DNA of 64,000 nt, from the NCBI GenBank assembly GCA_964481275.1, contig CAYZTD010000002.1:133378-197377 (forward strand), written 5' to 3'. The notes beneath the pieces were generated by a model that worked only from the letters and a program-made list of their open reading frames with translations, did no database searches and was not told the origin of the DNA. Every line of letters starts with the position of its first letter. Positions within the stretch are counted from its first letter, which is position 1. Below are positions 8,972 through 60,599 of the stretch, one piece after another. The position numbers and the translations under genes were made by a program. This DNA is from an uncultured Thermoplasmatales archaeon (GTDB taxonomy: Archaea > Thermoplasmatota > E2 > DHVEG-1).

Positions 8972-9086
8972 AATTCAAATAATACACTTTGTTATATATA
9001 ACATTTTTTACCTATAGAATTACCTTATTATTTACCGTTATATTTATATATTAATACTATTTATAGGTAAATAAATAGGTAATAAA

Positions 9087-10286: not shown

Positions 10287-10517
10287 AAGAAATTAATGAA
10301 GGAAAGTATAGTTCTTCTTTATATTTTACAATCTTTTGACTTAAAAAGTTCTATTTTGACCTAAAAGTCTGACTTATAAGTTAGTTTTGAGGCAAAGCCC
10401 CACACTACCCTTAGACCCCTAGGTTTATACCTAATAACAGCAGAAATATTTATATATAAGTTCTTTAATCACATTTAAAAGCATATCGCAAACTATAAAA
10501 AACTTTTTGGGGAATAA

Positions 10518-11468: not shown

Positions 11469-11489
11469 TCCATAATTTTTTTATTTTTT

Positions 11490-12098: not shown

Positions 12099-12270
12099 TA
12101 TAAATTAAGAACCTATTAACGCCCATTAATATCAAAAAATTCGACAATATGTAAAAAAACAACCGAAAGTAATATGAAGTATTGTCTATAGATATTATAG
12201 ATAGAATTAAATATTACATACCAATTAAAATTTTATCTCGCCTGAAAAATTATGGAGGGAGGCATAAAAG

Positions 12271-13227: not shown

Positions 13228-13243
13228 TCTAAATAATTTTTTG

Positions 13244-13711: not shown

Positions 13712-13739
13712 AGATTAATGGTAAAACAAGTTTATAATT

Positions 13740-34038: not shown

Positions 34039-35802
34039 ATGAGTTCAAATAAAAATACTAATAATCTTTTTGTAAAAAAGTTGATAGTAAAGAAAATATC
34101 TATATTAACTATAATTTTTTGTTTATTAACAATTTCATTTTTTAACCCTCTTACTATGGCATTACAATCAAAAAGTGAAATTTTAGAAAAAAATAGGGAA
34201 TTATCATTGGGAGATGGAATAGATTTTTCAATTGTTATACATAGGATAGAACAAATTGACGAAATAGATCCTTCTATACATGGTGAAGCTGATTGGACCT
34301 TAAGGATGTATGTAAACAACCAAAAACAAACTTTTGAATGTGAGGGGGATTCAGTTGTAGTTGATAAATGTTTTACTTGGGAAAAAATAATACAAGATGA
34401 CACAGAAGAATTAGATATAAAAATGGAACTAAAAGATAGAGATCCTTGGCCTGATGTTGATGATATAGCAGATATAAGTGCTTATCCTGATCTTTCTTAT
34501 GAAGATAAAGATTATGATGATACAACCGATTTTGAAAATAATAGACCTGCAGTTTTCAAAAGAACATATAATATACTAAATAAAACCTGGAAAGATGAAG
34601 ACGAAGAAAACGATTATTTAAAATGGGATGATGATTCAATTTTAGGGTGGTGGATTACTTCAGGTATTTTTGATGGGAGTACTAATAGAGACGAAAATGA
34701 TGCTCAGATATGGTTTAATATTTCTATAGAAAATAAACCTCCTTATCCACCAGAAAAACCTTCAGGTCCTACAATAGGATGGGAAAATACGGTATATGAA
34801 TTTAGCACAAAATCTCACGATCCAAATGGAGAAAAAATCCAATTTGGGTGGGATTGGGATTTTGATGGTGAAGTTGATGAAATAACTGGATTCTATGAAT
34901 CATGGGAAACCGCCAGTATTTATCATAGTTGGTCTAAAGCAAAAATTTACCATATACGTGTTTTAGCCATAGACTCACATGGTTTAACTAGTGAATGGTC
35001 TGAACCACTTAAAATTGAGATAAACGGCATTAATGGCAAATCAGGAATGGATATTCAAGATTGGAGTATGGGCCATGTTTATTCAATTTATTTTAATCAT
35101 CATGAAACCCAGGAAATAATAAGATCCCTAAGAAGTGGGGGAAATATTGTAGCAGCTGTTGCGACAATAATCACAACAATTGCAGCGATGAGTGGTGTAC
35201 CACTTGATATAAGCGCGGCGACAGCACTTGCTGGAGCTATAATACGTTTAGGAGTAGAAGTTATAAATTTAATGGATCATGGAATGGGAATATATGTCCG
35301 AATATATTTGGTTGAGATTGAAGGAGTGCCTATTGCATATTTTGCATATATATGGTCTCAATCTATGACTGCTAACGAGGGTGAATCTCCTGAAGGAAAT
35401 AAATCACCAGATGTCCCTTCTAAACCAGAATGCGATTCAAACTTTTTCTTAGTAGAAAATGAATATACTTTTACATGCCAAGCTACTGATCCAGATGGAG
35501 ATAAAGTTAATCTTCTTATTAGTTGGGGGGACGAAAATTACACTTGGACTGATTTAGTAAATTCAAATACTGAAATAACTGTTCACCATAAATGGAATAA
35601 AAAAGGATCCTATAATGTTAAAGTAAAAGCATTTGATGAATATGGAAATGAAAGCAGTTGGTCTGAATCTCTAACACTGAAAGTAAGTAAGGCTAAATCA
35701 AAATCAACAATTAATCTTAGTTTAAGAGAAAATTTATTTCTTACAATTTACAAAATATTAAATTTATTTGAGAAAAATTTTACAGATTTAATACCAAAAT
35801 AA
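34039..35802 (+). CDS. secreted PKD-domain protein carrying a shared ~160-aa unknown domain and the shared C-terminal tail; first gene of a three-gene secreted operon
   Basis: Signal/anchor sequence present. Unknown domain (ADWTLRMYVNN...DDIADISAYPD...NRDENDAQIWFNI). PKD domains (PPEKPSGPTIGWENTVYEF...FGWDWDFDG; LISWGDENYTW...VKVKAFDEYG). The tail is NLFLTIYKILNLFEKNFTDLIPK. Confidence 0.8.
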   Translation: MSSNKNTNNLFVKKLIVKKISILTIIFCLLTISFFNPLTMALQSKSEILEKNRELSLGDGIDFSIVIHRIEQIDEIDPSIHGEADWTLRMYVNNQKQTFECEGDSVVVDKCFTWEKIIQDDTEELDIKMELKDRDPWPDVDDIADISAYPDLSYEDKDYDDTTDFENNRPAVFKRTYNILNKTWKDEDEENDYLKWDDDSILGWWITSGIFDGSTNRDENDAQIWFNISIENKPPYPPEKPSGPTIGWENTVYEFSTKSHDPNGEKIQFGWDWDFDGEVDEITGFYESWETASIYHSWSKAKIYHIRVLAIDSHGLTSEWSEPLKIEINGINGKSGMDIQDWSMGHVYSIYFNHHETQEIIRSLRSGGNIVAAVATIITTIAAMSGVPLDISAATALAGAIIRLGVEVINLMDHGMGIYVRIYLVEIEGVPIAYFAYIWSQSMTANEGESPEGNKSPDVPSKPECDSNFFLVENEYTFTCQATDPDGDKVNLLISWGDENYTWTDLVNSNTEITVHHKWNKKGSYNVKVKAFDEYGNESSWSESLTLKVSKAKSKSTINLSLRENLFLTIYKILNLFEKNFTDLIPK

Positions 35803-35833
35803 ATAAAGCGGTGATGAAAGGAGATTAAAAGAT

Positions 35834-37429
35834 ATGAAAACTAATAAATTACTTTTAATAGCAATTTTTTTTATGCTGTTAAACACGTTAATAGCTAATG
35901 CAGGTTATGTACGAATTGGAGGAAATGAAAACAAATTTTTTGATAATTTAAAACTAGAGACTTCTTCTAATTCTAAATGGACTGTCATGGTTTATATGGA
36001 TGCAGATAATGATCTTGAACAATTTGCAATATATAATTTCTTACAGATGTCTGAAATAGGATCAACAGATGAAGTAAATATTGTTGTTCAACTTGATAGG
36101 ATTCCTGGCTATGATAACAGTTATGATGATTGGACCTCGGCTAAACGTTATTACATTCAGAAGAATATGGTACCAAACTCCAACAGTGCTTTAATGGATA
36201 TTGGGGAAGTAGATATGGGGGATTGGAATACATTAAAAGATTTTTACAATTGGGCTGTTTATAATTATCCTGCAGAAAAATATTGTCTCATTCTCTGGGA
36301 TCATGGTTCAGGCTGGAAAATGGGTGGAGAAACGACTTCTCCCTTTAAATGTATCTGTTCAGATTTTACAAATGGTGGAGTTATGTCTCTTCAGGATTTA
36401 AAAAATGGTTTAGATTCGATAACCCAACAAGGTAGAAATCCAATAGATTTAATATGTTTTGATGCTTGTTTAATGCAGATGATTGAAGTAGGATATGAAA
36501 TTAGATATTGTGCAGATTATATGACTGCCTCAGAGGAAGTTGAAACTGCTTATGGTTTAACCTATGATGATGCACTTTATCTATTAACTGAAGATGCTAA
36601 TGTTTCAGCTGATATCCTTGGAAGTTATTTTGTTAATTCTTATAAATATGAAACAATGTCAACAGTAGATCTACAAACTTTTGATTATCTAAAAGATGCG
36701 GTTAATAATTTAGGTAGCCACTTACAAGCTGAGGAATATAAGAGTTATATCAAGAATGCTATAAGGGATGTTGAGACCTATTACGATTATGATTTTGTGG
36801 ATTTATATGATTTTGCAAATCTATTAAAAAATTATATAGATGATTCAAATATCGATTATAAAGCAGATATGGTCATGGCTGGAGTAAATCAAGCTGTGCT
36901 TTATGAAAAACATGATTATAATCATCAAAGATCTCATGGTATCTCAATATATATGCCCTATAGAGAGTATGATTTTGCTTATGGTGATATTAGTTTTGCT
37001 ATGGATTCTTCATGGGATGAGTTTGTTATGTGGTATTTTGGCGGTAGTACAGGTAACGAACCAGAGATTCCTGAGATTGATGGTCCCGGATCTGGTAGTG
37101 TAGGGGTAGAATACGGCTATAGATTTCTTTCATCCGATCCTGATGATGACGATATATATTATTATGTTGAATGGAGTGATGGACAGAGTAGTGGTTTAAT
37201 TGGTCCTTATCCTTCAGGACAAGAAATTGTTTTATATCACAGCTGGGAAAATGAAGGATGGTATTTAGTTAGGGCAAAGGCAGTAGACGAGCATGGCCAT
37301 GAAAGTGATTGGAATCAATTAAATGTTGGAATGCCTAAGAAAAAATGTGTTTTTAAACAAAATACTATTCTGTTTTATTTATTTGAAAAATTTTTTGAAA
37401 AAATAACTGATTTATATTTTGGAGTGTGA
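35834..37429 (+). CDS. secreted clostripain-family (C11) cysteine peptidase with a C-terminal PKD domain and the shared tail
   Basis: Signal peptide present. Catalytic-dyad contexts LILWDHGSGW (His) and LICFDACLMQ (Cys). PKD domain (EIDGPGSGSVGVEYGYRF...YYYVEWSDG...RAKAVDEHG). The tail is NTILFYLFEKFFEKITDLYFGV. Confidence 0.85.
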   Translation: MKTNKLLLIAIFFMLLNTLIANAGYVRIGGNENKFFDNLKLETSSNSKWTVMVYMDADNDLEQFAIYNFLQMSEIGSTDEVNIVVQLDRIPGYDNSYDDWTSAKRYYIQKNMVPNSNSALMDIGEVDMGDWNTLKDFYNWAVYNYPAEKYCLILWDHGSGWKMGGETTSPFKCICSDFTNGGVMSLQDLKNGLDSITQQGRNPIDLICFDACLMQMIEVGYEIRYCADYMTASEEVETAYGLTYDDALYLLTEDANVSADILGSYFVNSYKYETMSTVDLQTFDYLKDAVNNLGSHLQAEEYKSYIKNAIRDVETYYDYDFVDLYDFANLLKNYIDDSNIDYKADMVMAGVNQAVLYEKHDYNHQRSHGISIYMPYREYDFAYGDISFAMDSSWDEFVMWYFGGSTGNEPEIPEIDGPGSGSVGVEYGYRFLSSDPDDDDIYYYVEWSDGQSSGLIGPYPSGQEIVLYHSWENEGWYLVRAKAVDEHGHESDWNQLNVGMPKKKCVFKQNTILFYLFEKFFEKITDLYFGV

Positions 37430-39803
37430 TTTATTGAAACTTGTAAAAATTTTGTTTGTAGTAGTTCTGTTGTTAACATGCAGTTCTTCAGTGGTATCAA
37501 TATATAACAAAAAAAATTTAGAAACAAACGACGTAGGATATGATACTTCAGCTGAATTACCTACATGGAATAAGGGTAACTATTGGAAATATGATATGGA
37601 TTTTGGTTTTATAGTTCGCAATAATGGTTTTAAAGAATTTTCTGTAGTTGCATCAATTAATAATATGAATGCTAGAGTAACAAATACCATTAATTACGAA
37701 GATGATGAAGTTTATGTTTTGTTGCTAGATGGTGATATTTCAGGTAAGATTTTTATTCTTGGCGAGATTGATTTAGCAGATATCGATGCAGACTTAGATG
37801 GAGTTGCATATATTTCTACTTCAACACTTGGCATTAAATATTTTAATTTCGATGTTGAAGGCAAAGTTAATTTGGTTGGTTGGCGGGATATAGATTTTGA
37901 TATGGTTATGAATTTTGTTCCTGAGTTTAACTTCTTTGATTTTCCTATAAATGTAAAAGAGGATCCATGGGAGGTTTATATTGATGAAGCATCTCTTTCT
38001 GCAGATGTTTATGTTGATCTTCCAGGGCCTTTTGATTTTAGAGATAGTTATTCCTCCTCGATGGTTTTTAATGATAACATGTCGATTAATAGAACTGAAA
38101 CTATAGATATTCCTGCAGGTATTTTCGAAACCATTGTCATAGATGGAAGTTGGGGTTATTATTCTAACCTTTATTATTCTGATTGTGTTGGTTATTTGGC
38201 AAAAATTGTAGAAAGATTATATTGGCCAGAAAATGAAGGGCAAATCGAATCGATTTTTAATTTAGAATTAATTGAAACAAATTTTGATGGAGGTAATATT
38301 CCTCCTAATAAACCAGATCGACCCTATGGGCAAACTGATGGTATAGCTGAAGAAGAATATCAATACAGAAGTGAGACTACTGATCCTGAAAATGAAAAAA
38401 TATATTACCTTTTTGATTGGGGTGATGGTACAGATAGTGGATGGGTTGGCCCTTACAATTCGGGGGATCAAGTTATAGTCTCTAATAGATGGTATAATAA
38501 AGGCATTTATTCAGTAATTGTTAAAGCAAAAGACGAAACGGGTATCGAAAGTTTATGGTCTGATCCCTTAATTGTAAAAATAATGGGGGATCCAAATGTA
38601 GATGTATTTGTTTGTAATGTAACAAATTCTGGAATGGATGATATTGATGTGGGATCAGATCCTGAATGGTATTATATGGTTCATGCAGAAAGTAGTGGTT
38701 TAAGTTCTCCTCCTGAATTTAATTATAATACAGATGATGGAACTGAAAATGGGAACTGGATTAGTGAAAAAACTTGGGAGGCCAAAAAGAACCATAGATT
38801 TAAAGGTTACAGTCGTAATGTTACAATAAAGCTAAAGCTTATGGATCATGATGACAGATGGGAAGATCCTATCTATGCAGCAGATGATCTTGCAGATGTA
38901 AGTGGATGTATTGGAGGTGGGGTTGATCAAGATACTCCCAATAAACGTGGAGCTATGTATTATGGGACATATGATTTGGTTGAAAATAAATTAAAAGATT
39001 TTCAGACTGGAGATCCTTTGGAAAATGCAGATTACGTTTACAAAAAAAATGATTATTACATTACAGCTGGAGATCATATACCAGATGAAAGTTATAACGA
39101 GGATGAAAATGATGCTAAGATTTGCTTTAAGCTTTTTAACGATTATGAAAAACCAATTGTGAATGCTAGAATTTTAAATGAACCTGAAAGAATCAGACCA
39201 ATGCAAAATCTTCAATTTGTAGGATCAGTTCAAAATGGTGCTCCTGAGTATAAATGGTCCTGGGATTTTGATGATGGAACAATTTTAAAAGATGATCAAA
39301 AACCAGAACATAGTTTCCAAAATAAAGGAACTTATGATGTAACATTAACATTGACAGATGGATTCAATATAGATAGCATTTTTAAGCTAAATGTAAAAGT
39401 AGAAAACTATGATCCAGTTCTTACAGATGACAAAGTAAAATTTGATGGAAAAGGAGATTTAGACGATACATTTACTTTTTCGGTGAATTACCAAGATTTG
39501 GATGGAGATGATCCTGATGTAAAAACAGTTGTTATAAATGGGAAATCATGGAATCTAAATGGTTTTGGAGCAAATTCTGAATATAGTTTGGCCCTAAAAG
39601 GTAGAGACATTGGTCAGGGTAGTCATGAATTTTATTTTTATTTTGAGGATGGTCATGGTGGTAGTGCACAAACTGAACCTAAAAACTTAGAGGTAAGTAA
39701 AACAAAAGTAAAAACAGATACTTTCTTTCTGAAATTAATGACTTTCTTCAAAGAAAACATTCTTTCTAAAATTGTGAATCTCAATCATATCACATTAGGT
39801 TGA
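37419..39803 (+). CDS. large secreted multi-domain protein (PKD domains, shared ~160-aa unknown domain, shared tail)
   Basis: The ORF overlaps the upstream gene, and the track start is TTG. Signal peptide-like N-terminus. PKD domains (PPNKPDRPYGQTDGIAEEEY...LFDWGDGTDSGW...VKAKDETG; a second near SWDFDDGT). Unknown domain (PEWYYMVHAE...DDLADVSGCIGGG...NEDENDAKICFKLF). The tail is TFFLKLMTFFKENILSKIVNL. Confidence 0.8.
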   Translation: MECDLLKLVKILFVVVLLLTCSSSVVSIYNKKNLETNDVGYDTSAELPTWNKGNYWKYDMDFGFIVRNNGFKEFSVVASINNMNARVTNTINYEDDEVYVLLLDGDISGKIFILGEIDLADIDADLDGVAYISTSTLGIKYFNFDVEGKVNLVGWRDIDFDMVMNFVPEFNFFDFPINVKEDPWEVYIDEASLSADVYVDLPGPFDFRDSYSSSMVFNDNMSINRTETIDIPAGIFETIVIDGSWGYYSNLYYSDCVGYLAKIVERLYWPENEGQIESIFNLELIETNFDGGNIPPNKPDRPYGQTDGIAEEEYQYRSETTDPENEKIYYLFDWGDGTDSGWVGPYNSGDQVIVSNRWYNKGIYSVIVKAKDETGIESLWSDPLIVKIMGDPNVDVFVCNVTNSGMDDIDVGSDPEWYYMVHAESSGLSSPPEFNYNTDDGTENGNWISEKTWEAKKNHRFKGYSRNVTIKLKLMDHDDRWEDPIYAADDLADVSGCIGGGVDQDTPNKRGAMYYGTYDLVENKLKDFQTGDPLENADYVYKKNDYYITAGDHIPDESYNEDENDAKICFKLFNDYEKPIVNARILNEPERIRPMQNLQFVGSVQNGAPEYKWSWDFDDGTILKDDQKPEHSFQNKGTYDVTLTLTDGFNIDSIFKLNVKVENYDPVLTDDKVKFDGKGDLDDTFTFSVNYQDLDGDDPDVKTVVINGKSWNLNGFGANSEYSLALKGRDIGQGSHEFYFYFEDGHGGSAQTEPKNLEVSKTKVKTDTFFLKLMTFFKENILSKIVNLNHITLG

Positions 39804-40902: not shown

Positions 40903-42213
40903 ATGAATCTTAGAAACTTTCTTTCTAAACTAGAAAAAGAAGGTAAACTTAAAAGAATAAAAAAACAAGTATCAATAGATAAAGAGATAGCAAATATTAT
41001 TTATACTCTAAACGAACAACCAGTTATTTTTGAAAATGTAAAAGATTACAATATTTCTGTATTTGCAGGTATAACATCAAATCGTGATATAATAGCAGAA
41101 GGACTTGAAACAACTAAAGAAAAACTTTTATTTAAATTAGTTGAAGCTCTCTCTAATCCAAAAGAGCCAAAAATAGTAAAAAACGCTCCATGTCAAGAAG
41201 TAATAATGAAAGATGTTGATCTTAAAAAAATACCAATACTTTTTCATCTTGATGGTGATGGTGGAAGATATGGCTCTGCTACAGTTGCAACTATTAAAGA
41301 CCCGGAAACAGGAAGAAATGTATCCTATCATAGAATAATGGAGATTGGTAAAAATAAATTTACAGCACGTCTTATTAAAAAAAGACAGACGAGAACAACC
41401 TATGATAAAATTGATGAGGATTTGGAAATGGCTGTATGTATTGGAAGTTCAGTAGCTGTTATGGTTGCTGCATCTCTTGGTCCTCCCTCAGGTGTTGATG
41501 AGTTTTCTATTGCAAATGCACTTGATAAAACAGATTTAGTAAAATGTGTCACAAAAGATTTAGAAGTACCTGCTGAATCAGAATTTGTAATAGAGGGAAG
41601 GCTTACTAGAGATCTTGATCGCGAAGGACCTTTTGTAGATCTGACTGAAACTCGTGATTTTGAAAGACAAGAACCTGTTTTTGTTGTTGATTGTATTACA
41701 CATAGAAAAGATGCTATGTATCAAGCTCTTATCCCTGGTAGACTTGAACATAAGACACTTATGGGTATGCCAAAGGAACCAACAATATATAGTGAAGTAT
41801 CTAAAGTTGTAGATTGCAAAAATGTCTATGTAACAATGGGTGGCGGTTCTTGGCTTCATGGTATTGTTCAAATAAAAAAGAAACATCCTGATGATGGTAA
41901 AAAAGCAATAGAAGCAGCGTTTAATGGACATAAAAGCATGAAACATGTAATCGTTGTAGATGAGGATGTAGATATCTATAATCCTCTCTCTGTTGAATGG
42001 GCAATTGCCACTAGATTTCAAGGTGATAAAAATCTAGTTATAAACCATAATCAACCTGGTAGCAGTCTTGATCCGTCTGGAAAACATATACCTGGTCAAA
42101 AAACACGTACAACAAAAGTAGGTGTTGATGCAACAATCCCATCTGATGTAAGTAAAGAAAAATATGAAACTGTAACTTATAAAAAAGTTGATTTAGATGA
42201 TTATCTCAGGTAA
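40903..42213 (+). CDS. UbiD-family prFMN-dependent decarboxylase, likely trans-anhydromevalonate-5-phosphate decarboxylase of the archaeal mevalonate pathway
   Basis: 436 aa with the UbiD fold. The gene sits between mvk and the AcnX-type dehydratase genes. Confidence 0.7.
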   Translation: MNLRNFLSKLEKEGKLKRIKKQVSIDKEIANIIYTLNEQPVIFENVKDYNISVFAGITSNRDIIAEGLETTKEKLLFKLVEALSNPKEPKIVKNAPCQEVIMKDVDLKKIPILFHLDGDGGRYGSATVATIKDPETGRNVSYHRIMEIGKNKFTARLIKKRQTRTTYDKIDEDLEMAVCIGSSVAVMVAASLGPPSGVDEFSIANALDKTDLVKCVTKDLEVPAESEFVIEGRLTRDLDREGPFVDLTETRDFERQEPVFVVDCITHRKDAMYQALIPGRLEHKTLMGMPKEPTIYSEVSKVVDCKNVYVTMGGGSWLHGIVQIKKKHPDDGKKAIEAAFNGHKSMKHVIVVDEDVDIYNPLSVEWAIATRFQGDKNLVINHNQPGSSLDPSGKHIPGQKTRTTKVGVDATIPSDVSKEKYETVTYKKVDLDDYLR

Positions 42214-42514
42214 AGGAAAATATAAGGTTTTTTTAGAAAAAAAAGAACTTGATGATGATTTAGTTTTTATTTTAGGTGGCGGTGAAAAATCCCATGTTGG
42301 TGGAGTAGTTATTTGTGAACCAGAAAAAAAACCAACTGTAATAAAGTTAGGTACTCACCATGATTATATTGTTTTAACGCCGATTGCCGAAAGAGCATGT
42401 GAAAAATATAATAAAACTGTAGCTGTAATTGGTGGTATACATATAGATAATGCAACCAAGGAAGAAATCAGTATAATTGTTAAAAATTGTACGGAGTTAT
42501 TAAAATGCATTTAA
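42197..42514 (+). CDS. small conserved hypothetical protein embedded in the mevalonate operon
   Basis: 105-aa ORF overlapping both neighbours in an operon-like arrangement. No recognisable family. Confidence 0.45.
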   Translation: MIISGKGKYKVFLEKKELDDDLVFILGGGEKSHVGGVVICEPEKKPTVIKLGTHHDYIVLTPIAERACEKYNKTVAVIGGIHIDNATKEEISIIVKNCTELLKCI

Positions 42515-44074: not shown

Positions 44075-45523
44075 TTAGTGTCTCATATTCCAGATGGTTC
44101 CAACACCTTTTAGATTTATTTCATGGTTTACATTATTATCTTCCCATGTAATTTTACCATTTATATTAGACATACCTATCTTCATTCCTACATGAGCAAA
44201 ACGTTTCCATGTTTGATCTAAAGTGTTTTGTGATTCAATATCTAAGTTTAGTTGTATGTTATTTTCTGAAAGTAAAATTTGAGTTACAGCAGTTTTTGAG
44301 GATATACTAATTTTATTAGGCATATTTAAAAGTAAAAATATTTTTTCTGAATCAGTTATTTTTACTTCTGTTTTTTGTAAAAGAGTTATTGTTTCTCCTT
44401 GATCTGATGTTATAATTATATTAGCAAATGGATTTATTTTGTATGTTTTTGTTGATTTAAACTCTGGAGTAAAATAATAATTGCTATAGTAAATATTCCA
44501 GCCGTTTTCAAGAGTCATGTGGCACCAATCCCATCCTCTTAATAATCCCGATGTTAGAAGACCTGATATCCATGTATGTTCATGATGTCCTATTCCCTTT
44601 ACTTCGGCTTCCATGCCATTAAGTTTTACTTTTCCTTTTACATTACATCCCATAAAAACATAACTTGCGATATTTCCTTTTGATTTATCAATTGGTCTAC
44701 TGCTATATGTCCAAATTGGAGGAGACTCAGCTTCATATGTCAAATCCATTTCTATGTCATCTTCACCTATTTTACCATCTATATGTATGTACCAGTTTGG
44801 AGCTCTACCTTGTACATATGAATCTTCAAATGAGACCTTAAACATTTTTTCAGATGATGAGGTTTGAAGGGTTGGTTCTGAAAGAAAACTATAATCTCCA
44901 AGAAGTGGTCTTTTTCTTTCTTCTATACCGCCGTATTCTTTTCCATCTGGGCTGTGTAGTGTTACAATTAATAAATCTGGTTTTGTGACAAATAAATCTC
45001 CTCTTGCCATATGATTAAAACTTATTGTCGCTGTCCAACCTGCAAGAGCGCTGTTTTTGCTAAAAACAACTGTATAATACCACCATTCTCTATTTATTAA
45101 AATTTGGCTTTTATAATGAGCTCCTTCGTTTTCTGGTGATACAACTCTTTGTTCTGGTAACATTATTGATGTAGGTAGTTTTTTTTCTTTTGTAAAAATC
45201 CATGAGCCATAATCAATACCTGTTTTTATATGAGTTATTGTAATTGTACCATAACAACCTGTTATTTCATCTCCTTCTACAACATTTTTTCCAAGTTTTG
45301 ATGTATCACAATTACCTGTTATTATTAGTTCATCCCATCTAACTTCTTTAGATACATATGTCACCTCAAGTTTTTTGTTTGCATCATCTTGTATAAAATG
45401 AATCTCCGGTGGTTTAGGTGCTCTTGGGTCTTCTATAATTTTTGCTCTAAATAAAACTATTGTGGATACAATTAATAGTATTACTATGATCACGACATCG
45501 ATTTTTTTAAGCTTTTTTTTCAT
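44075..45523 (-). CDS. membrane-anchored extracytoplasmic protein, unknown function (possibly lipocalin/AttH-CrtC-like hydrolase fold)
   Basis: 482 aa with an N-terminal signal-anchor (KIDVVIIVILLIVSTIVLF). Trp-rich. It converges on the mevalonate operon. The family assignment is uncertain. Confidence 0.55.
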   Translation of the reverse strand: MKKKLKKIDVVIIVILLIVSTIVLFRAKIIEDPRAPKPPEIHFIQDDANKKLEVTYVSKEVRWDELIITGNCDTSKLGKNVVEGDEITGCYGTITITHIKTGIDYGSWIFTKEKKLPTSIMLPEQRVVSPENEGAHYKSQILINREWWYYTVVFSKNSALAGWTATISFNHMARGDLFVTKPDLLIVTLHSPDGKEYGGIEERKRPLLGDYSFLSEPTLQTSSSEKMFKVSFEDSYVQGRAPNWYIHIDGKIGEDDIEMDLTYEAESPPIWTYSSRPIDKSKGNIASYVFMGCNVKGKVKLNGMEAEVKGIGHHEHTWISGLLTSGLLRGWDWCHMTLENGWNIYYSNYYFTPEFKSTKTYKINPFANIIITSDQGETITLLQKTEVKITDSEKIFLLLNMPNKISISSKTAVTQILLSENNIQLNLDIESQNTLDQTWKRFAHVGMKIGMSNINGKITWEDNNVNHEINLKGVGTIWNMRH

Positions 45524-46134
45524 TTCTCACCAGCCTACATAAGCACTTATTTTATACAGCTAATTAAATATTTACTGTTATTATTATTAAATCTTCTTTT
45601 ACAATTATTATCAAAAATTGAAAATTTTACAAAAAATTTCGAATTTGGACTTTTTAGTGTATATAGTCTGTGAAGTGCACACATATATACATATACAGCT
45701 GCGAAAAAGGCACTTAAAAGGGATAATAATTCTTAAGGTTAAGGTTAGATGGAAAGGGATTGAGCCAATTTTTCGGTTGAAAAATACCCATCCAATTACC
45801 CCTCTAAATCACCTCTTTACCCTTTCCATTGCTTTTCTTCCATTTCTAAATTTTAGTTGTTTATCTTACAGTCTGTAATACTTACACAAAACATTTAAAT
45901 AATATTATTTACAAAGTATAACATGAAGGTTGGTGAATTAAAAAATGAGAATTGTAAGTGATTTAAACTCCAAACAAGAACTCAAGGAAATGAAATCTGT
46001 AATGGAAATTTTTGTTGTAAACACCAGAATAAAACAATTAGCAGTAAATGCATAGATAACAACCTTCTTATTATCAATATATAGCCTCTAATTCCTCCTT
46101 TTTACTCTATACCTTTATTCTTACCTATAGGGGA

Positions 46135-46710
46135 ATGTTAATAACAGAGTTTTTTATTACAAAAGAACATTGGGGGCAATTTATGGTAGATAGAAAAGAT
46201 ATCCAAAACATTTTTTCAGAAGAATTAGAATGGATAGAAGACAAAGATTTAAGAGAAAAAGTAATAGATGTATGGCATAAAGCATCTCAACTAGGAAAAT
46301 GGGATGATCTAAAAAAGATACCATTTACCCTTCTTTTTGAAGGTTCAGGATTGTTAGTAGATCATACCAAAAGAGTAACTCATCTTGCAAAAGCAGTATA
46401 TGACAATAGAGATGAAAAATTAAACAAAGATTATCTAATAGCAGGAATCCTTTTACATGATGTAGGTAAACTTTTAGAATATGATGAAGTAAATGGAAAA
46501 ATTATAAAAGGAGAATACGGAAAAAAATTTAGACACCCAGTGTCTGGATCTATGCTTGCAAAAAATCTTGCCCTTCCAGATGAAATAGTACATATTATTT
46601 TTGCTCATTCACATGAGGGGGACAAAACAGAAAGATCACCTGAAGCTGTAATAGTACATCACGTCGATTTTATAGATTTTCATATTAAGAAAGGTTTGGT
46701 GAAAAGTTGA
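46135..46710 (+). CDS. HD-domain phosphohydrolase
   Basis: Metal-binding His/Asp motifs LLHDVGK and AHSHEGD. It is the first gene of a six-gene operon. Confidence 0.7.
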   Translation: MLITEFFITKEHWGQFMVDRKDIQNIFSEELEWIEDKDLREKVIDVWHKASQLGKWDDLKKIPFTLLFEGSGLLVDHTKRVTHLAKAVYDNRDEKLNKDYLIAGILLHDVGKLLEYDEVNGKIIKGEYGKKFRHPVSGSMLAKNLALPDEIVHIIFAHSHEGDKTERSPEAVIVHHVDFIDFHIKKGLVKS

Positions 46711-48203
46711 AAGTAACAAACGCTGCAGGAAAAAAAATTGAAACAAAAATTAATAACAGAATTTTTAAACCATATGCTGGAGGAAAAAAACATAGCGGAA
46801 AATCAAAAGTTGAAAAAGATATACCTACTGCTCTTAAAAAAGCAGGTATAACAAATGGTATGACACTTTCTTTTCATCATCAACTGCGTAATGGTGACTT
46901 TGTAATAAACAACACACTAGAATCAGTAAAAGATTTAGGTGTTAAAGATATTAGACTAGCACAAACAGCTCTTTTTGATGTACATGACCCAGTTATAGAT
47001 TTTATAAAAGATGGCATTGTAACAAGTATTGAGGGTAGTGTAAACGGAGCTGTTGGAGATTTTATATCAAAGAATAATCCATTAAAATCACCAGTAATAC
47101 TTCGTTCCCATGGGGGACGCTGGGCTGCAGTAAAATCAGGTGAACTTCATCCAGATATTGCAATAATTGCTGCATCTGGAGCAGATATAAGAGGAAATGC
47201 AACGGGCCTTCTAGGCGAAAGTGCTTTTGGGAATATAGCATATTCACAGGTTGATGCCTGGCATGCAGATAAAGTAATAATTGTTACAGATAATCTAACA
47301 GATTATCCCTGCCCATATAGAGAAATATATGAAGGACTTGTAGACTATGTAGTTAACATAGATAGAATTGGTAATCCAGATAAAATCGTCAGCGGTTCAC
47401 TTAAAATAACTAAAAATCCTATGAAACTTGAAATAGGTAAAAAATGTGTAGATCTTATGGATGCAACAGGGATTATAAAAAATGATATGATTTTCCAGGG
47501 GGGCGCAGGAGGTATATCGCTTGCCGCATTAAAATATCTGGGAGAAAGATTAAAAGAAAAAAATATGGTTGCAGCTTGTTCCACAGGTGGTCTTACAGAA
47601 TTCATAGTTAATATGTACAAATCTGGTGTTTTAAAACAAGTAAACACCTGTCAGTGCTTTGATACAACAGCAGTAGATTTTGTAAGAAAGCATTTAGAAT
47701 CTGCATCAACAATTGGTGAATATTCAGATCATACAATGAAAGGAAGAAATACAGATCGTTTGGATACCGTAGTTCTTGGTGCAACAGAAGTTGATACAGA
47801 TTTTAATGTAAATGTAAACACACATAGTGATGGAAGAATGCTTCATGGTATAGGTGGACACCAAGATGTGTCTTCTACTGCAAATCTAACAATAATTACT
47901 GTTCCGATTTTTAGAGGTAAAAACCCAATTGTTCGTGATGTTGTTACAACTATTACAACCCCTGGAGATATTATAGATGCAATTGTCACTAATGAAGGAA
48001 TAGCTATAAATCCAAAACGAAAAGATTTAATAGATTCATGTAAGGGGAAAATTGATTTAATAGATATAGAAGAACTCAAAAATATGGCATATGATGAAAC
48101 AGGAGGGCCTGTTGAACCAAAATCAGGAGAAGAAATAATTGGTATGACCAAATATTTTGATGGTACAGTACTTGATAACATTTATCAAGTTTTGGAGGAT
48201 TAA
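46707..48203 (+). CDS. citF: citrate lyase alpha-subunit homologue (CitF-type citrate CoA-transferase)
   Basis: Conserved blocks GMTLSFHH, LRSHGGRWAAVKSGEL and DRIGNPDKI align with CitF (for example E. coli GMTVSFHH / IHSHGGR / VQSGEL). 498 aa. Confidence 0.75.
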   Translation: MKVTNAAGKKIETKINNRIFKPYAGGKKHSGKSKVEKDIPTALKKAGITNGMTLSFHHQLRNGDFVINNTLESVKDLGVKDIRLAQTALFDVHDPVIDFIKDGIVTSIEGSVNGAVGDFISKNNPLKSPVILRSHGGRWAAVKSGELHPDIAIIAASGADIRGNATGLLGESAFGNIAYSQVDAWHADKVIIVTDNLTDYPCPYREIYEGLVDYVVNIDRIGNPDKIVSGSLKITKNPMKLEIGKKCVDLMDATGIIKNDMIFQGGAGGISLAALKYLGERLKEKNMVAACSTGGLTEFIVNMYKSGVLKQVNTCQCFDTTAVDFVRKHLESASTIGEYSDHTMKGRNTDRLDTVVLGATEVDTDFNVNVNTHSDGRMLHGIGGHQDVSSTANLTIITVPIFRGKNPIVRDVVTTITTPGDIIDAIVTNEGIAINPKRKDLIDSCKGKIDLIDIEELKNMAYDETGGPVEPKSGEEIIGMTKYFDGTVLDNIYQVLED

Positions 48204-48206
48204 AAA

Positions 48207-48977
48207 ATGAATTGGAAAACAAAAATTACAAAAGTAGAGCCAAATCATCTTATAACACGTGGTTATAGGCAGGAAGATCTTATTGGAAATATACCTTTTT
48301 CACATGTAGTATATCTTTTATTAAAAGGAGAGCTTCCAACAAAAGAACATGGAAAAATGGTGGATGCGATACTTACAGCATGTATGGACCATGGTGTTAC
48401 ACCACCTTCGTCAATGGCATCAAGAATTGTAGCATCAGGAGAAGTACCTCTTCCTACTGCAGTTGCTGCAGGAATACTTTCTATTGGAGATTCACATGGA
48501 GGAGCAATAGAAAAAGGTGCAAAGTTTTTACAAGATGGAATTAAAAAAATGAAAGATGAAAATATGGATATTCAAAAAATAGCAGAAACTTTAGTTTCAG
48601 AATCAAGAGAAAAAAAGAGGCGCATACTTGGTTTTGGACACAGAGTTCATACCTCTGATCCTCGTACTAAAAGATTATTCAAACTTTCTGATGAGTTAAA
48701 TATCTCTGGTGATCATATAGATTTATCAAAAAAAATTGAAAAAGAACTTGAAACAAATATTGGGAAAAAACTTCCAATAAATGTTGATGGTGCAATCGCA
48801 GCAATTATTTCTGATATGAATTTTGATTGGAGGCTTGGAAAAGCTTTCTTTTTACTTGGAAGAGTAGCAGGTATTACTGCTCATGTATATGAAGAACAAA
48901 CTGAATTTAAACCAATGAGAAAAATTTTTGATACAGATGTAGAATATGATGGAGAAAAAGAAAAAGATTTACCATAA
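48207..48977 (+). CDS. citrate-synthase-family short protein, citryl-CoA lyase (CCL)-like
   Basis: 256 aa with the citrate synthase catalytic signature GFGHRVHTSDPR. The length matches CCL rather than full-length citrate synthase. Confidence 0.7.
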   Translation: MNWKTKITKVEPNHLITRGYRQEDLIGNIPFSHVVYLLLKGELPTKEHGKMVDAILTACMDHGVTPPSSMASRIVASGEVPLPTAVAAGILSIGDSHGGAIEKGAKFLQDGIKKMKDENMDIQKIAETLVSESREKKRRILGFGHRVHTSDPRTKRLFKLSDELNISGDHIDLSKKIEKELETNIGKKLPINVDGAIAAIISDMNFDWRLGKAFFLLGRVAGITAHVYEEQTEFKPMRKIFDTDVEYDGEKEKDLP

Positions 48978-48996
48978 CATTTTGAGGTGAATTATT

Positions 48997-50751
48997 TTGG
49001 GAAAAACAATTATTCAAAAAATTTTTGAGAGTCATTCAAAGCAAGTTGCAAATGTTGGAGATATAATTGATATAGATATAGATGTTAGAGTAGCTCGTGA
49101 TTTTGGTGGAGCAAACGTTGTAAAAAACCTTGAAGAAAACAATCTATCAATTGATGATCCAAAAAAAACTTTTTTTACATTTGACTGTAATCCTGGAGGA
49201 TGTGATCAGAAATATGCAGCAAATCAACATATCTGCAGGCAGTTTGCAAGAAAAAATGGAATAAAAGTTTTTGATATAGACCAAGGTATTGGAACACATA
49301 TTGTAATAGATAAGGATATTGTAAAACCAGGTGGGACTATAGTTTCAACAGATTCACATGCAAATATACTTGGTGCTTATGGAGCATTTGGCCAGGGTAT
49401 GGGTGATAAAGATATGGCTCATGCATGGGCATATGGTAAAATATGGTTCAAGGTTCCACCTACAATAAAAATAGTTTTAAAGGGAATGCCTGGAAAAAAT
49501 GCTACACCTAAAGATGTCGTTTTGAAAATGTTACAAGATCTTGGTGCTAATGGCCTACTTGGTTATGCCTCTGAAATATATGGAACATATGTTGATCAGT
49601 TGTCTATCGATGGGAGAATCACTATTGCATCTATGGCAACTGAGATGGGCGGAATAATACTTCTATTTCCAAACAAAGATGGGTTTTCTGCTGATCCTGA
49701 TTGTACATATGAAAAAACAATAGAAGTAGATATATCTGGTATTGAACCAATGATCTCTAAACCTGGTCACCCTGAAGATGTAGTCAAAGTATCTAGTTTA
49801 AAAGACGTAAAAGTTGATTCTGGGATTATTGCATCTTGTACTAATGGTAGAATGGATGACATGAGAGCTGCTGCAAGAATACTTAAAGGTAAAAAAATAG
49901 CTCCCGGGAGGGTTTTAAAGATAGTTCCATCTACTAATAAGATATGGAAACAATGCCTCGATGAAGGGCTTATTAAAATCTTTAAAGATGCAGGAGCACT
50001 TGTTGGGAGTGCAGGCTGTGCTAGTTGTGCTGCAGGGCAAATCGGTCAAACAGGTAAAGAAGAAGTAGAAGTTTCAACTGGTAACAGAAATTATGTTGGA
50101 AAACAAGGCAAAGGTGATGTTTACCTGACTAGCCCTGAAACGGTTGCTGCAAGTCTAGTAGCTGGATATATTACAAAAAAAGATAGTATTCCTAAAAATC
50201 CTATTGAACTACAAATAAAAAAAGAAAAAAACTTTGAAAGTAAAAAAGAAGAAACTAATAAAGAATCTCCTTTAAAACTTGAGGGCCGTGCATGGGTTAT
50301 TAAAAAAGATAATATTGATACAGATATGATATATCACAATAGATATCTATCTATCACTGATATTTCAGAGATGGGGCAATACGCATTTGATAATCTAAAA
50401 GGCTATGAAGACTTTGCTAAAAAGGCAAAACCTGGAGACATTGTTGTTACTGGTAAAAACTTTGGCTGTGGAAGTAGCAGACAGCAGGCAGTTGATTGCT
50501 TCAAAAGCCTTGGAATAAGCTTGATTATTGCTGAATCCTTTGGTTCGATTTATGAAAGAAACGCAATCAATAATGCAATGCCTATAATGATTGCAGAAGA
50601 TATTACTGATAAGATAGATGATAAGGATATAATTACTGTTGATTTAAAAAATGGTAAAATTTTTGATAAATCCAAAAATAAAGAAATCAAAGGCAAACCT
50701 TTTTCAAAATCTCAACTTGAAATCTATAAACGTGGTGGTCTTTTAGCATAA
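48997..50751 (+). CDS. fused large+small subunit aconitase-family dehydratase (LeuC-LeuD type)
   Basis: The LeuC-like N-terminal part has DSHANILGAY, ASCTNGRMDD and GCASCAAGQIG. The LeuD-like C-terminal part has GKNFGCGSSRQQA. 584 aa. Confidence 0.75.
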   Translation: MGKTIIQKIFESHSKQVANVGDIIDIDIDVRVARDFGGANVVKNLEENNLSIDDPKKTFFTFDCNPGGCDQKYAANQHICRQFARKNGIKVFDIDQGIGTHIVIDKDIVKPGGTIVSTDSHANILGAYGAFGQGMGDKDMAHAWAYGKIWFKVPPTIKIVLKGMPGKNATPKDVVLKMLQDLGANGLLGYASEIYGTYVDQLSIDGRITIASMATEMGGIILLFPNKDGFSADPDCTYEKTIEVDISGIEPMISKPGHPEDVVKVSSLKDVKVDSGIIASCTNGRMDDMRAAARILKGKKIAPGRVLKIVPSTNKIWKQCLDEGLIKIFKDAGALVGSAGCASCAAGQIGQTGKEEVEVSTGNRNYVGKQGKGDVYLTSPETVAASLVAGYITKKDSIPKNPIELQIKKEKNFESKKEETNKESPLKLEGRAWVIKKDNIDTDMIYHNRYLSITDISEMGQYAFDNLKGYEDFAKKAKPGDIVVTGKNFGCGSSRQQAVDCFKSLGISLIIAESFGSIYERNAINNAMPIMIAEDITDKIDDKDIITVDLKNGKIFDKSKNKEIKGKPFSKSQLEIYKRGGLLA

Positions 50752-50823
50752 AAGTTTTATTATTTTAGTAAAACTCTTTTAACCTCTTTTTACATTTCAT
50801 AAAATGCATTTGGGGGTTTTTGG

Positions 50824-52053
50824 ATGATTGTAAATGCTGATCTTCATATACATTCGCGTTTTTCTGGTGCTACAAGTAATAAGATGAATATCAAAACTAT
50901 TTCAAAAGAAGCTCCTAGAAAAGGTATTGATATTGTAGGAACCGGTGATTGCCTTCATAGTGGTTGGCTAAAAGAGATTAAACAATGTAATCTTGTTGAG
51001 GAAGGAACATTTGAATTAAACAACACTCGTTTTATTCTTAGTACTGAAATTGAAGCTATACAACGTGTTCATCATTTAGTTTATTTTCCAAGTTTTCCAT
51101 CTGTATTGGATTTCAAAGAACGTATAAAATCAAAATCCAAGAATCTGGAATCTGATGGTAGACCAAATGTTAAAATGTCTGGTGAAGAACTAGCTGAAAT
51201 CGCTAGAGATGTCGATGCATTAATTGGTCCTGCTCATGCTTTTACTCCTTATACTGCAATTTATGCTCATTATGATTCATTAAAAGATTGTTATGGTGAT
51301 ATGGCTGATTATGTAAGTTTTGTCGAGCTTGGTCTTAGTGCTGATAGTTATTTTGCTGATAAAATAAGAGAACTTCATAGACTTACTTTTCTTACAAACT
51401 CTGATTGTCATAGCCCACATCCAGTTCGTCTCGGTCGTGAATTTAATCGTTTTAAAGTAAAAGATGCAACTTTTAATGAAATTAAAAAAGCAATTCTTAG
51501 AGAAGACGGTAATAAATCTATTCTAAATGTAGGTCTTCCACCTCAAGAAGGAAAGTATCACGAAACAGCTTGTCGTAAATGTTTCACTCATTATGATATA
51601 GAGGAGGCAAAAAGAAGACGTTTTAAATGTAGTTGTGGTGGAAGAATAAAGAAAGGTGTAAAAGATAATATAAATGAAAAAGCTGATTTTTCAGAACCTC
51701 AGCACCCTGATCATAGACCAGAATATGTGCATCTTATTCCCATGGCTGAAATTATTACAAAGGCAATCGGTCAGAGAAATCCTTTTACTAATACTGTTAC
51801 AAAACGTTTTGATGAACTTATAGATGTATTTGGTAGTGAAATAAATGTTTTACTTGAGGCTGATATACGCAAGATTGCAAAGGTTACAGCTCCTGTAATA
51901 ACAGAGGCTATTCAATCATTCAGGGATAAAAAAGTTGTGATTATTCCTGGTGGAGGCGGAGAATATGGTAAAATTGAACTTCCAAAAGAAGATATAGTTA
52001 CTATCCCTAATCTTGGTCCAAAAGATAGACAAACTATTCTTACTGATTATTAA
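50824..52053 (+). CDS. PHP-domain (polymerase/histidinol phosphatase-like) metal-dependent hydrolase with a C-terminal Cys-rich region
   Basis: The N-terminal ADLHIHSRFSGATS motif is typical of PHP domains. A CxxC...CxC cluster is present (CRKCF...CSCGG). Confidence 0.65.
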   Translation: MIVNADLHIHSRFSGATSNKMNIKTISKEAPRKGIDIVGTGDCLHSGWLKEIKQCNLVEEGTFELNNTRFILSTEIEAIQRVHHLVYFPSFPSVLDFKERIKSKSKNLESDGRPNVKMSGEELAEIARDVDALIGPAHAFTPYTAIYAHYDSLKDCYGDMADYVSFVELGLSADSYFADKIRELHRLTFLTNSDCHSPHPVRLGREFNRFKVKDATFNEIKKAILREDGNKSILNVGLPPQEGKYHETACRKCFTHYDIEEAKRRRFKCSCGGRIKKGVKDNINEKADFSEPQHPDHRPEYVHLIPMAEIITKAIGQRNPFTNTVTKRFDELIDVFGSEINVLLEADIRKIAKVTAPVITEAIQSFRDKKVVIIPGGGGEYGKIELPKEDIVTIPNLGPKDRQTILTDY

Positions 52054-52055
52054 AA

Positions 52056-52508
52056 TTGGTGATAATTTTGAACTATGATATAGCACTTAAAAAGATAAAA
52101 AATATGATTGTTTCTTCAAATAATGTTTTAGATGAAGTTGTATTGTTTCTTTATGAAAACTTTGATCACTATACTTGGATTGGAGTCTATTTAGTTGAGG
52201 GAGAACATCTAATTTTAGGTCCATGGAAAGGTCCAAATGCTACAGAACATACTAAAATCCCAATAGGACAAGGTGTGTGTGGTGCTGCAGCAGAAAGTGG
52301 AAAAACAGAGATTGTTGATGATGTAAGAAAGGACGATAGATATTTGGCTTGTTTTTTATCAACTAAATCTGAAATTGTTGTTCCAATAAAAAAAGAAGAT
52401 AAAATTATTGGTGAAATAGATATAGATTCAGATAAACCCGCTGCTTTTACAAAAAATGATAAACTATTTTTAGAAAAAGTTGCAGATATGCTCTCCAAGC
52501 ATATCTAA
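52056..52508 (+). CDS. GAF-domain protein (free Met-R-sulfoxide reductase-like)
   Basis: About 150 aa with GAF-like conserved blocks WIGVYLVEGEHLILGPWKG and GQGVCGAAAESG. The start is uncertain (TTG at 52056). Confidence 0.6.
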   Translation: MVIILNYDIALKKIKNMIVSSNNVLDEVVLFLYENFDHYTWIGVYLVEGEHLILGPWKGPNATEHTKIPIGQGVCGAAAESGKTEIVDDVRKDDRYLACFLSTKSEIVVPIKKEDKIIGEIDIDSDKPAAFTKNDKLFLEKVADMLSKHI

Positions 52509-59908: not shown

Positions 59909-60571
59909 ATGAATGCGAAAAAAATAGATTTAGATGCTATAGATATAAAAGAAAAAGCATATCTAATTGGTATCATAGTTGGAGATGGGTATTTATATCA
60001 TGATAATTGGAGGCATTACAAGGTTAATATTTACTTAAATCCAAATAAAGATAAAGACGTAGCTAATTTTGTTCTATTTTTACTAAAGAAAGTAGGTCTT
60101 AATCCATATGAAATGCATCATCATGGATGTTTAGTTATAAGATTTAATTCAAAATCATTTTTTAATTTTATTGAAAAAGAATTAAAAAGAATTAAAAACA
60201 TCGATATTAAAAATAAGGATTTTATGATTGGTTTTATATCAGGATTTATAGATTCTGATGGCTATGTATCTTATGGAGATATTGTTATTTCAAATAAAAA
60301 AAAAGAATTGATAGAAAAGACAAATAATTTTTGTAAAAATTTGAAAATATATTCTAAAATTTGGAGTCAACATAATCTATTCCGTGGTAAAATTTTTGAT
60401 ATATGGAGATTGAGAATAGGTACTAGTTTTAAGTATGAGGAACATTATTCCCAAAAATTAAATCGGATATATGGCGGGGCGCTGCCCATCATAGCGAGTA
60501 TTAATTCAGAAATGGATGATACCTATAAGGGTGGGGTAGCCAGGAAATCCCGACGGGCCCATAACCCGTAG
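59909..60571 (+). CDS. LAGLIDADG-family homing endonuclease (double-motif); 3' end reads into the tRNA-Met 5' exon
   Basis: Two LAGLIDADG-type motifs are present (LIGIIVGDGYL and IGFISGFIDSDGYV). The true stop is uncertain because the reading frame continues through the tRNA gene. Confidence 0.7.
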   Translation: MNAKKIDLDAIDIKEKAYLIGIIVGDGYLYHDNWRHYKVNIYLNPNKDKDVANFVLFLLKKVGLNPYEMHHHGCLVIRFNSKSFFNFIEKELKRIKNIDIKNKDFMIGFISGFIDSDGYVSYGDIVISNKKKELIEKTNNFCKNLKIYSKIWSQHNLFRGKIFDIWRLRIGTSFKYEEHYSQKLNRIYGGALPIIASINSEMDDTYKGGVARKSRRAHNP

Positions 60572-60599
60572 ATCAGTGGTTCAAATCCACTCCCCGCTA
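60473..60599 (+). tRNA. initiator-type tRNA-Met (anticodon CAU) interrupted by a ~52-nt non-canonical intron between the acceptor stem and D arm
   Basis: The contiguous 3' part has D arm GGGG-UAGCCAGGAAA-UCCC, anticodon arm ACGGG-CCCAUAA-CCCGU with three G-C pairs, T arm AGUGG-UUCAAAU-CCACU and 3' acceptor CCCCGCU-A. The only complementary 5' acceptor strand (GGCG/GGG) lies about 52 nt upstream at 60473. Confidence 0.6.

Follow-up and report, generated by a model that had tools for sequence, protein, structure and literature searches.

A CitF-family CoA-transferase beside a stand-alone citryl-CoA lyase: a probable carrier-free citrate lyase in Thermoplasmatota archaea

The 64-kb window of DNA considered here, which is the whole stretch that was analysed and has a base composition of ~30% G+C, comes from an uncultured Thermoplasmatales archaeon and encodes a CitF-family CoA-transferase, a homologue of the alpha subunit of citrate lyase, immediately before a stand-alone citryl-CoA lyase (CCL) with the fold of citrate synthase (CS). 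The comparison of this locus with its relatives makes it fairly probable, in our opinion, that the two proteins form a citrate lyase that would act, in the direction of cleavage, on free CoA thioesters instead of the prosthetic group of an acyl carrier protein (ACP). The process would comprise: (i) the transfer of CoA by CitF, with acetyl-CoA as donor and citrate as acceptor, which yields (3S)-citryl-CoA and acetate; (ii) the splitting of citryl-CoA by the CS-fold lyase into acetyl-CoA and oxaloacetate; (iii) and finally, the recycling of acetyl-CoA, which would thus be catalytic, so that the net reaction would be citrate to acetate and oxaloacetate. We infer from the sequences the substrates, the use of free CoA, the direction of cleavage and the physiological source of the citrate.

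The six open reading frames (ORFs) that the original prediction had read as a single operon are indeed present on the + strand, from 46135 to 52508, with spacings between consecutive ORFs of -4, +3, +19, +72 and +2 nt. However, the conserved unit comprises no more than the first four, namely HD-CitF-CCL and, after it in the window, a divergent paralogue of the aconitase family:

46135..46710, + strand: HD-domain metal-dependent hydrolase (PF01966)
46707..48203, + strand: CitF-family CoA-transferase, citrate lyase alpha-subunit homologue (PF04223)
48207..48977, + strand: stand-alone citrate-synthase-fold citryl-CoA lyase, CCL, 256 aa (NF004866, NF004869)
48997..50751, + strand: fused aconitase-superfamily protein, large and small subunit, 584 aa (PF00330 and PF00694)

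The family assignments were drawn from Pfam, NCBIfam and PDB sequence searches, which bear out the families named in the original prediction. A CitF alignment was scanned against the GTDB species representatives, giving 80 loci, against all of which the six proteins of the window were run by tblastn, and the neighbouring ORFs were clustered. Nearly all the loci belong to metagenome-assembled genomes (MAGs) of Thermoplasmatota, among them SG8-52-3, SM1-50, M11B2D and 3300003432D, which have been defined as Thermoprofundales/MBG-D (Zhou et al., PMC6461988). Homologues of CitF, CCL and HD are likewise abundant in metagenomes, where the named ones are Thermoplasmata or Thermoplasmatota.

Three layouts are found in these loci. 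Type A (seven loci, plus one with a CitE fragment) has CitF beside a fusion of CitD, the ACP, with CitE, of the HpcH family, or beside separate CitD and CitE, and usually carries the HD gene too; two of the type A loci come from bacteria (Acetothermia and Thermotogae). In type B (five loci) HD-CitF is followed by a CS-like protein of 350–360 aa. Type C, with HD-CitF-CCL, comprises 55 loci from about 55 Thermoplasmatota species representatives, so that the neighbourhood is well conserved in related MAGs, and the next gene 3′ of CCL is either the fused aconitase-family gene (~29 loci) or one for a B12-binding radical SAM protein (~16 loci). The genes of type C are tightly packed: HD and CitF lie a median of 2 nt apart (n=41), CitF and CCL 3 nt (n=50), and CCL and the aconitase-family gene 17 nt (n=29). 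This recurrence of the four-gene core is far beyond chance. Eleven further loci have only CitF paired with a canonical aconitase large subunit.

The evidence that carries most weight is the relationship between the layouts. CitD and CitE profiles built from the related loci match every type A locus (CitE with E down to 1e-160) and have no match in any type B or C locus, while CS-fold genes are missing from all type A loci; in other words, CitDE and the CS-fold lyase are mutually exclusive across the 80 loci. The absence of citD and citE, previously read from the ORFs, is borne out by the same profiles, with no match for CitD in the six-frame translation of the window and none for CitE in its 64 kb. 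In the type A locus L079 the order is mevalonate kinase (MVK), UbiD, AcnX_L, AcnX_S, a minus-strand gene of 470 aa, HD, CitDE and CitF; in the window it is MVK, UbiD, PAC (a proteasome-assembly-chaperone-like protein), AcnX_L, AcnX_S, the same minus-strand gene, HD, CitF, CCL and the aconitase-family gene. As these flanks are alike, the lyase was exchanged within an otherwise unchanged neighbourhood: a CS-fold lyase replaced the carrier protein and the TIM-barrel lyase in place.

In the ancestral layout CitD is fused to CitE, and the loss of CitDE therefore also removes the carrier protein; since the CitF of type C loci is no longer in length than that of the other layouts, the simplest reading would be that CitF uses free acetyl-CoA and passes citryl-CoA to CCL. 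To our knowledge, the (3S)-citryl thioester is the sole substrate class common to the lyases of CitE type and those of CS fold (EC 4.1.3.6, 4.1.3.34, 2.8.3.10), which suggests citrate as the acid on which CitF acts. An ACP-independent route of citrate cleavage, as had been suggested for this locus, thus finds strong comparative support in the flanks of L079 and in the exclusivity of the two lyases across the loci.

The identity of the lyase itself is suggested by several lines of comparison. It scores 304 against the NCBIfam citryl-CoA lyase model NF004866 (cutoff 245) and 300 against NF004869 (cutoff 212), remaining far under the cutoffs of all NCBIfam citrate synthase models; its best solved relative is PDB 6hxp, “citryl-CoA lyase” (E 4e-70, 48% identity), and the ATP-citrate lyase (ACL) structures 6hxn and 6hxj match it with E about 1e-20. 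In the alignment of CCL, 6hxp and the type B CS-like proteins the motifs SHGGA, GFGHRVH, DPR, NVDG and GRVAG are kept. The anticipated pairing of CitF with a CS-fold citryl-CoA lyase bearing the GFGHRVH..DPR signature is supported. These motifs presumably hold the catalytic His/His/Asp of CS and its oxaloacetate-binding Arg residues (His274, His320, Asp375, Arg329 and Arg401). The type B proteins, which share 40–45% identity with the window CCL and carry an insert of ~100 aa, also have citryl-CoA lyase models as their top NCBIfam matches. Nor is the 256-aa protein a truncated pseudogene of citrate synthase, as the gene is full-length and highly conserved.

It could be argued that this protein is simply a small citrate synthase, and that CitF is an independent CoA-transferase (e.g., of citramalate) that merely shares the operon, given that KEGG and arCOG place the protein in K01647 in the Thermoprofundales MAGs, that the CCL of Hydrogenobacter has trace citrate synthase activity, and that CitF is below its equivalog cutoff (see below). 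However, a protein that passes the citryl-CoA lyase cutoffs and stays far under every citrate synthase cutoff, that is without the ~100 residues which even its type B CS-like relatives possess, that sits in the place of CitDE beside CitF in otherwise identical loci, and whose linkage to CitF by a 3-nt gap is conserved in 50 loci, makes this explanation unlikely. As to the origin of citryl-CoA, no gene resembling citryl-CoA synthetase (CCS) or succinyl-CoA synthetase was found near any CCL, either among the recurrent neighbour families of the 80 loci or in any of 60 loci. The partner is CitF instead, and with no gene for an ATP-dependent citryl-CoA synthetase near any CCL the system corresponds neither to the CCS/CCL of Hydrogenobacter nor to ACL.

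The CitF homologue matches PF04223 with E 5e-127 over residues 34–495, and PDB 1xr4 and 2hj0 with E 1e-100; against the NCBIfam citF equivalog it reaches 466 bits, below the cutoff of 501. In a neighbour-joining tree of CitF, without bootstraps and whose topology is therefore indicative only, the sequences linked to CitDE branch off at the base, the bacterial ones serving as outgroup, and every CitF that accompanies a CS-fold lyase falls into a single derived clade, at whose base the type B members lie. Two MAGs with HD-CitF-CCL also contain a second, solitary CitF paralogue with 57–58% identity (L055, 1806–3296; L057, 3654–5150), which has no HD, lyase or aconitase neighbours and adjoins sulfotransferase or papain-like genes.

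With respect to direction, the formation of citrate from oxaloacetate and acetate is approximately thermoneutral at 1 M and strongly unfavourable at micromolar oxaloacetate (our estimate, from textbook free energies), so that cleavage would be favoured. The opposite arrangement would be a biosynthetic, split citrate synthase that conserves the thioester, in which CCL would make citryl-CoA and CitF would give its CoA to acetate, freeing citrate for the synthesis of 2-oxoglutarate and glutamate. Both reactions are chemically reversible, CCL is the sole protein of the citrate synthase family in seven of eight published Thermoprofundales MAGs, and the gene order of the locus L060 (module, LeuC/LeuD-type genes, Iso_dh) is the one expected for a path from oxaloacetate to 2-oxoglutarate. 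However, with a standard free energy of about zero, micromolar oxaloacetate would give sub-micromolar citrate (by the same estimate), and these peptide degraders, with their 2-oxoglutarate:ferredoxin oxidoreductase and aminotransferases, have other routes to 2-oxoglutarate; we regard a synthase of this kind as rather improbable, and its energy-conserving version, contemplated in the original prediction, as thermodynamically implausible at physiological concentrations. The net reaction of cleavage affects another early proposal, that the locus would feed acetyl-CoA to isoprenoid synthesis: with acetyl-CoA as the donor there would be net acetate and not extra acetyl-CoA, and the idea would need another CoA donor or the re-activation of acetate.

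Within the cleavage reading, the metabolism of the hosts offers a possible context. The main text of Zhou et al. has no mention of citrate (PMC6461988); in their supplementary table the K01647 “citrate synthase” of eight of the eight Thermoprofundales MAGs, assigned through KEGG and arCOG, is this CCL, and the best nr matches of these proteins bear the name citryl-CoA lyase (PMC6461988). Among them, 3300003432D_scaffold_3_22 belongs to our locus L018 and M11B2D_scaffold_138_6 to L028. According to the same table, a second CS-like gene exists in just one MAG, and six MAGs have a separate aconitase of AcnA type; an isocitrate/isopropylmalate dehydrogenase is listed too (PMC6461988). These organisms, described as heterotrophic peptide degraders, possess 2-oxoglutarate:ferredoxin oxidoreductase and aminotransferases, and aclAB and frdAB are absent from them (PMC6461988). 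The CitF-CCL pair is therefore apparently the only enzyme that links citrate with oxaloacetate in these peptide fermenters. The citrate could plausibly have 2-oxoglutarate or glutamate as its source, by way of isocitrate dehydrogenase and the AcnA-type aconitase encoded elsewhere in related genomes. A path that starts at glutamate and runs by 2-oxoglutarate, isocitrate and citrate to oxaloacetate and acetate would be plausible. The position of the L060 lyase module beside canonical LeuC/LeuD-type and Iso_dh genes is also counted in favour of cleavage.

The fused aconitase-family protein is a different matter. Its best PDB matches are archaeal isopropylmalate isomerase (IPMI) and homoaconitase (HACN) structures (4kp1, 4kp2, 3vba and 2pkp, E 1e-63 to 1e-67), and it is under all the NCBIfam cutoffs for the large subunit (PRK00402 366, cutoff 385; hacA_fam 342, cutoff 386; IPMI_arch 333, cutoff 410), the small-subunit model LEUD_arch being the sole family model that it passes; the canonical paralogues of related loci clear the large-subunit cutoffs easily. 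HMMER alignments with HacA and LeuC of M. jannaschii, pig aconitase, all the paralogues of the loci and 150 library representatives reveal that the protein retains the three Cys ligands together with the DSH and GSSR motifs, with CTNGR and CxxC conserved in all its orthologues, and that four active-site positions are altered in the window protein: FDH to FDC, NM..EMG to SM..EMG, NRNFxGR to NRNYVGK, and HD to RD. The histidine lost from FDH, which we take to be the equivalent of the general acid His101 of pig aconitase, is replaced by C, T, L or Y in the orthologues, a variability from which it follows that no residue there takes over its role.

Two classes can be separated on this basis. The canonical one (HD, FDH, CHQ, DSHT, NM..EMG, CGPC, NRNFxGR) is found in type A loci, in the CitF-aconitase pairs and downstream of the L060 and L061 modules, and most of the top 150 family representatives have its pattern of His (at the second position), Asn and Arg. 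Class 2 (RD, FD(C/T/L/Y), G(T/S/Q)H, DSH(A/L/M)N, SM..EMG, CxxC, NRNFxGK) includes the window protein, all type C orthologues, the upstream copy of L060 and ~25 library representatives, both fused and split. The loop of the small domain is YLSIT, versus YLVY in IPMI and YLRT in HACN. We considered IPMI, HACN and aconitase as identities for the fused protein, and it fits none of them, the loop and the active-site changes being unique to a small subfamily.

Consequently, the earlier view of this gene as a standard LeuCD or aconitase does not hold, with four otherwise conserved active-site positions changed. No leuA or leuB is adjacent, and neither is present among the recurrent neighbours of the related loci. 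The further suggestion that it interconverts citrate and isocitrate beside the lyase is doubtful, because the conserved His is missing and related genomes have the separate AcnA-type aconitase.

Both classes occur around one lyase module in L060 (MAG Thermoplasmata AUK202, 7770–15296), a cluster of eight genes with class-2 LeuC-like, LeuD-like, HD, CitF and a CS-like protein of 349 aa, continuing with canonical LeuC-like, LeuD-like and Iso_dh, which looks like an evolutionary intermediate. In L065–L072 and L082 CitF is directly followed by a canonical aconitase/HacA-type large subunit of 392 aa, with no adjoining small subunit or lyase, and in L066 the HD and CitDE genes lie ~2 kb upstream of the pair.

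These class-2 proteins raise the possibility that the substrate is an analogue of citrate, such as 2-methylcitrate or a substituted hydroxy-tricarboxylate, and that the lyase and its aconitase-family partner changed specificity together. In favour of this, class-2 paralogues adjoin only CS-fold lyases in these loci, the CitDE-type loci having canonical ones; the YLSIT loop is without the arginine that marks the tricarboxylate-type homoaconitase; and CitF and the fused protein are each under their equivalog cutoffs. However, all known CS-fold enzymes use oxaloacetate, whose binding motifs are intact here, and ~16 CCL-type loci have the unrelated radical SAM gene instead of the class-2 gene beside CCL, so that the core works without a class-2 gene in cis; an analogue as the substrate therefore seems to us improbable. 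In these ~16 loci (L018, L025, L028, L033, L036, L040, L041 and others) the B12-binding radical SAM protein has a DUF4070, and genes for a methyltransferase, an NAD-epimerase and a UbiA prenyltransferase are close by; seen together with the mevalonate genes upstream, the surroundings resemble a gene neighbourhood for lipids or isoprenoids.

The HD protein (PF01966, E 3e-12, HDIG domain) probably starts at M17, position 46183, because its orthologues are of ~173 aa. Its gene is beside CitF in 56 of the 80 loci, spanning types A, B and C and including two bacterial loci, and as it was kept when the carrier protein was lost, a carrier-linked role seems unlikely. The AF2 model (pLDDT 93) has the HD domain of YhaM as its best fold match, followed only by generic HD phosphohydrolases.

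Several points weigh against a citrate lyase on free CoA, which we nevertheless prefer. Firstly, the absence of CitD and CitE holds for what was searched, the 64 kb of the window and loci no longer than 21 kb, and there is no citrate transporter among the recurrent neighbours of the related loci. Secondly, with CitF below its equivalog cutoff its substrate could differ. Thirdly, the conserved HD partner has no part in the mechanism proposed, and the picture of an aconitase that feeds citrate to the lyase fails for the fused gene, which is without the conserved His. And finally, the argument on direction starts from textbook free energies and not from data on these organisms. The genes citC, citG and citX were also absent among the Pfam-annotated neighbours of the loci, where no profiles aimed at these families were used.

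The other two genes of the supposed operon are the following:

50824-52053, + strand: endonuclease Q (EndoQ), a DNA repair nuclease with PHP domain and Zn-finger (PDB 5zb8, TIGR00375)
52056-52508, + strand: GAF protein of the free methionine-R-sulfoxide reductase (fRMsr) family (PDB 3ksf, 4mmn, 3mmh, 1vhm)

EndoQ matches PDB 5zb8 with E 2e-123 (5zb8 and 7k30 with E about 1e-123 over residues 1–391) and scores 350 against TIGR00375 (cutoff 327). These two genes, 2 nt apart, were evaluated as members of the module and discarded, as they are found beside CitF in none of the 80 loci; they are a stress/repair gene pair unique to the locus of this genome. They are unrelated housekeeping genes and not the PHP and GAF partners that had been envisaged. 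The 72-nt AT-rich spacer upstream of EndoQ has the TATA-like CATAAAAT.

Upstream of the module are genes for a GHMP mevalonate kinase, a UbiD-type decarboxylase and the large and small subunits of aconitase X, which correspond to the archaeal mevalonate route, and this synteny is kept in 22–30 type C loci as well as in the type A locus L079, so that it may represent inherited gene order. Mevalonate genes, peptidases, an ABC-2 exporter, carbamoyl-phosphate synthase, the B12-radical SAM protein and UbiA prenyltransferase are the recurrent neighbours of the loci. The module is not directly downstream of the mevalonate operon, as had been stated, because a minus-strand gene (44075–45523) and ~600 nt intervene, although the arrangement is conserved. 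That gene encodes a protein of 482 aa with no significant Pfam family and a weak match (E 5e-4) to the lipocalin domain of CrtC (carotenoid hydratase), and in ~36 loci, of which the CitDE-type L079 is one, it always separates the aconitase-X small subunit from the HD gene and lies on the strand opposite to them. The mevalonate operon of the window also contains, after the gene for the UbiD-type decarboxylase and before those for aconitase X, a gene for a PAC_bac protein of 105 aa (42197–42514, + strand; proteasome-assembly-chaperone-like, PF21758), and this position is conserved in ~25 related loci. The 600-nt spacer 5′ of the HD gene contains an ORF of 36 codons (45945–46055, + strand), and small ORFs of ~78–89 aa are present at a like position in several related loci.

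Further away, three large genes (34039–39803, + strand) encode two PKD-domain proteins with a clostripain-family (C11) peptidase between them, which fit the extracellular protein-degrading lifestyle described for MBG-D archaea. At 59909–60599 (+ strand) there is a LAGLIDADG homing-endonuclease-like ORF of 220 aa, the 3′ end of which overlaps the tRNA-Met CAT (60530–60599), the only tRNA of the window.

Literature searches gave no description of the pairing of CitF and CCL, the displacement of CitDE by CCL, the HD linkage or the histidine-less aconitase subfamily; automatic annotation already gives the single genes the names “citrate lyase subunit alpha” and “citryl-CoA lyase”. It is possible, and we propose it only tentatively, that CitF and CCL constitute a third, undescribed kind of citrate-cleaving system, a hybrid of the fermentative citrate lyase and the CCL/ACL lineage, and that in Thermoprofundales (MBG-D), which are among the most abundant archaea of sediments, nothing else joins citrate to oxaloacetate/acetyl units, so that it would close a reductive route there, from glutamate or 2-oxoglutarate by isocitrate and citrate to oxaloacetate and acetate. 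If so, this route would be an electron-sinking branch of fermentation or, with re-activation of acetate, a variant of the reductive tricarboxylic acid (TCA) cycle independent of aclAB, and the co-inherited HD protein, like the aconitase paralogue that lacks the histidine, would bring chemistry new to its family.

In reconstructions from metagenomes, the enzymes that cleave and make citrate are taken as diagnostic of which way the TCA cycle runs, and as the “citrate synthase” of Thermoprofundales is CCL joined to CitF, the published oxidative TCA models may be wrong at this step. From an evolutionary point of view, the series from CitDE to a CS-like protein and to CCL in identical flanks offers a clean case from nature of non-orthologous displacement within an enzyme of several subunits, and it is relevant to the proposal that citrate synthase descends from CCL-type lyases. 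In practical terms, a carrier-free citrate lyase of two proteins would give metabolic engineers something simpler to work with than CitCDEFXG.

Among the known systems, the bacterial, ATP-independent CitDEF (EC 4.1.3.6) has in common with the one proposed here the alpha subunit of the CitF family and, as predicted, the two steps of acyl exchange and retro-aldol cleavage and the net reaction, and the basal relatives of this locus even keep CitD-CitE beside CitF. The differences are that neither the CitD carrier nor the TIM-barrel CitE is present here, so that the lyase step would correspond to the CS-fold protein and the carrier would have to be free CoA; that no citC, citG or citX was seen nearby; and that there is a conserved HD protein, which the classical system does not have. 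The CCS/CCL system of Hydrogenobacter type shares the stand-alone CS-fold lyase of ~256 aa, with common catalytic motifs and the 48% identity to 6hxp already mentioned, whereas here citryl-CoA would come from an ATP-independent CoA-transferase and not from an ATP-dependent CCS similar to succinyl-CoA synthetase; moreover, CCS/CCL serves reductive TCA cycles, in contrast to the present hosts, heterotrophic peptide-degrading archaea without aclAB or frdAB. In ATP-citrate lyase (ACLY/AclAB) the C-terminal CCL module is homologous and the same citryl-CoA intermediate is split into acetyl-CoA and oxaloacetate, but the ATP-grasp and CoA-ligase domains are not found here, and there would be no net acetyl-CoA unless acetate were re-activated separately. 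Finally, the fused protein keeps the three Cys cluster ligands, DSH and GSSR of the archaeal LeuCD/HacAB enzymes, from which it differs in the fusion of its subunits, in the changes of His to Cys in FDH(N/Q), of Asn to Ser, of Arg to Lys and of His to Arg, and in its YLSIT loop.

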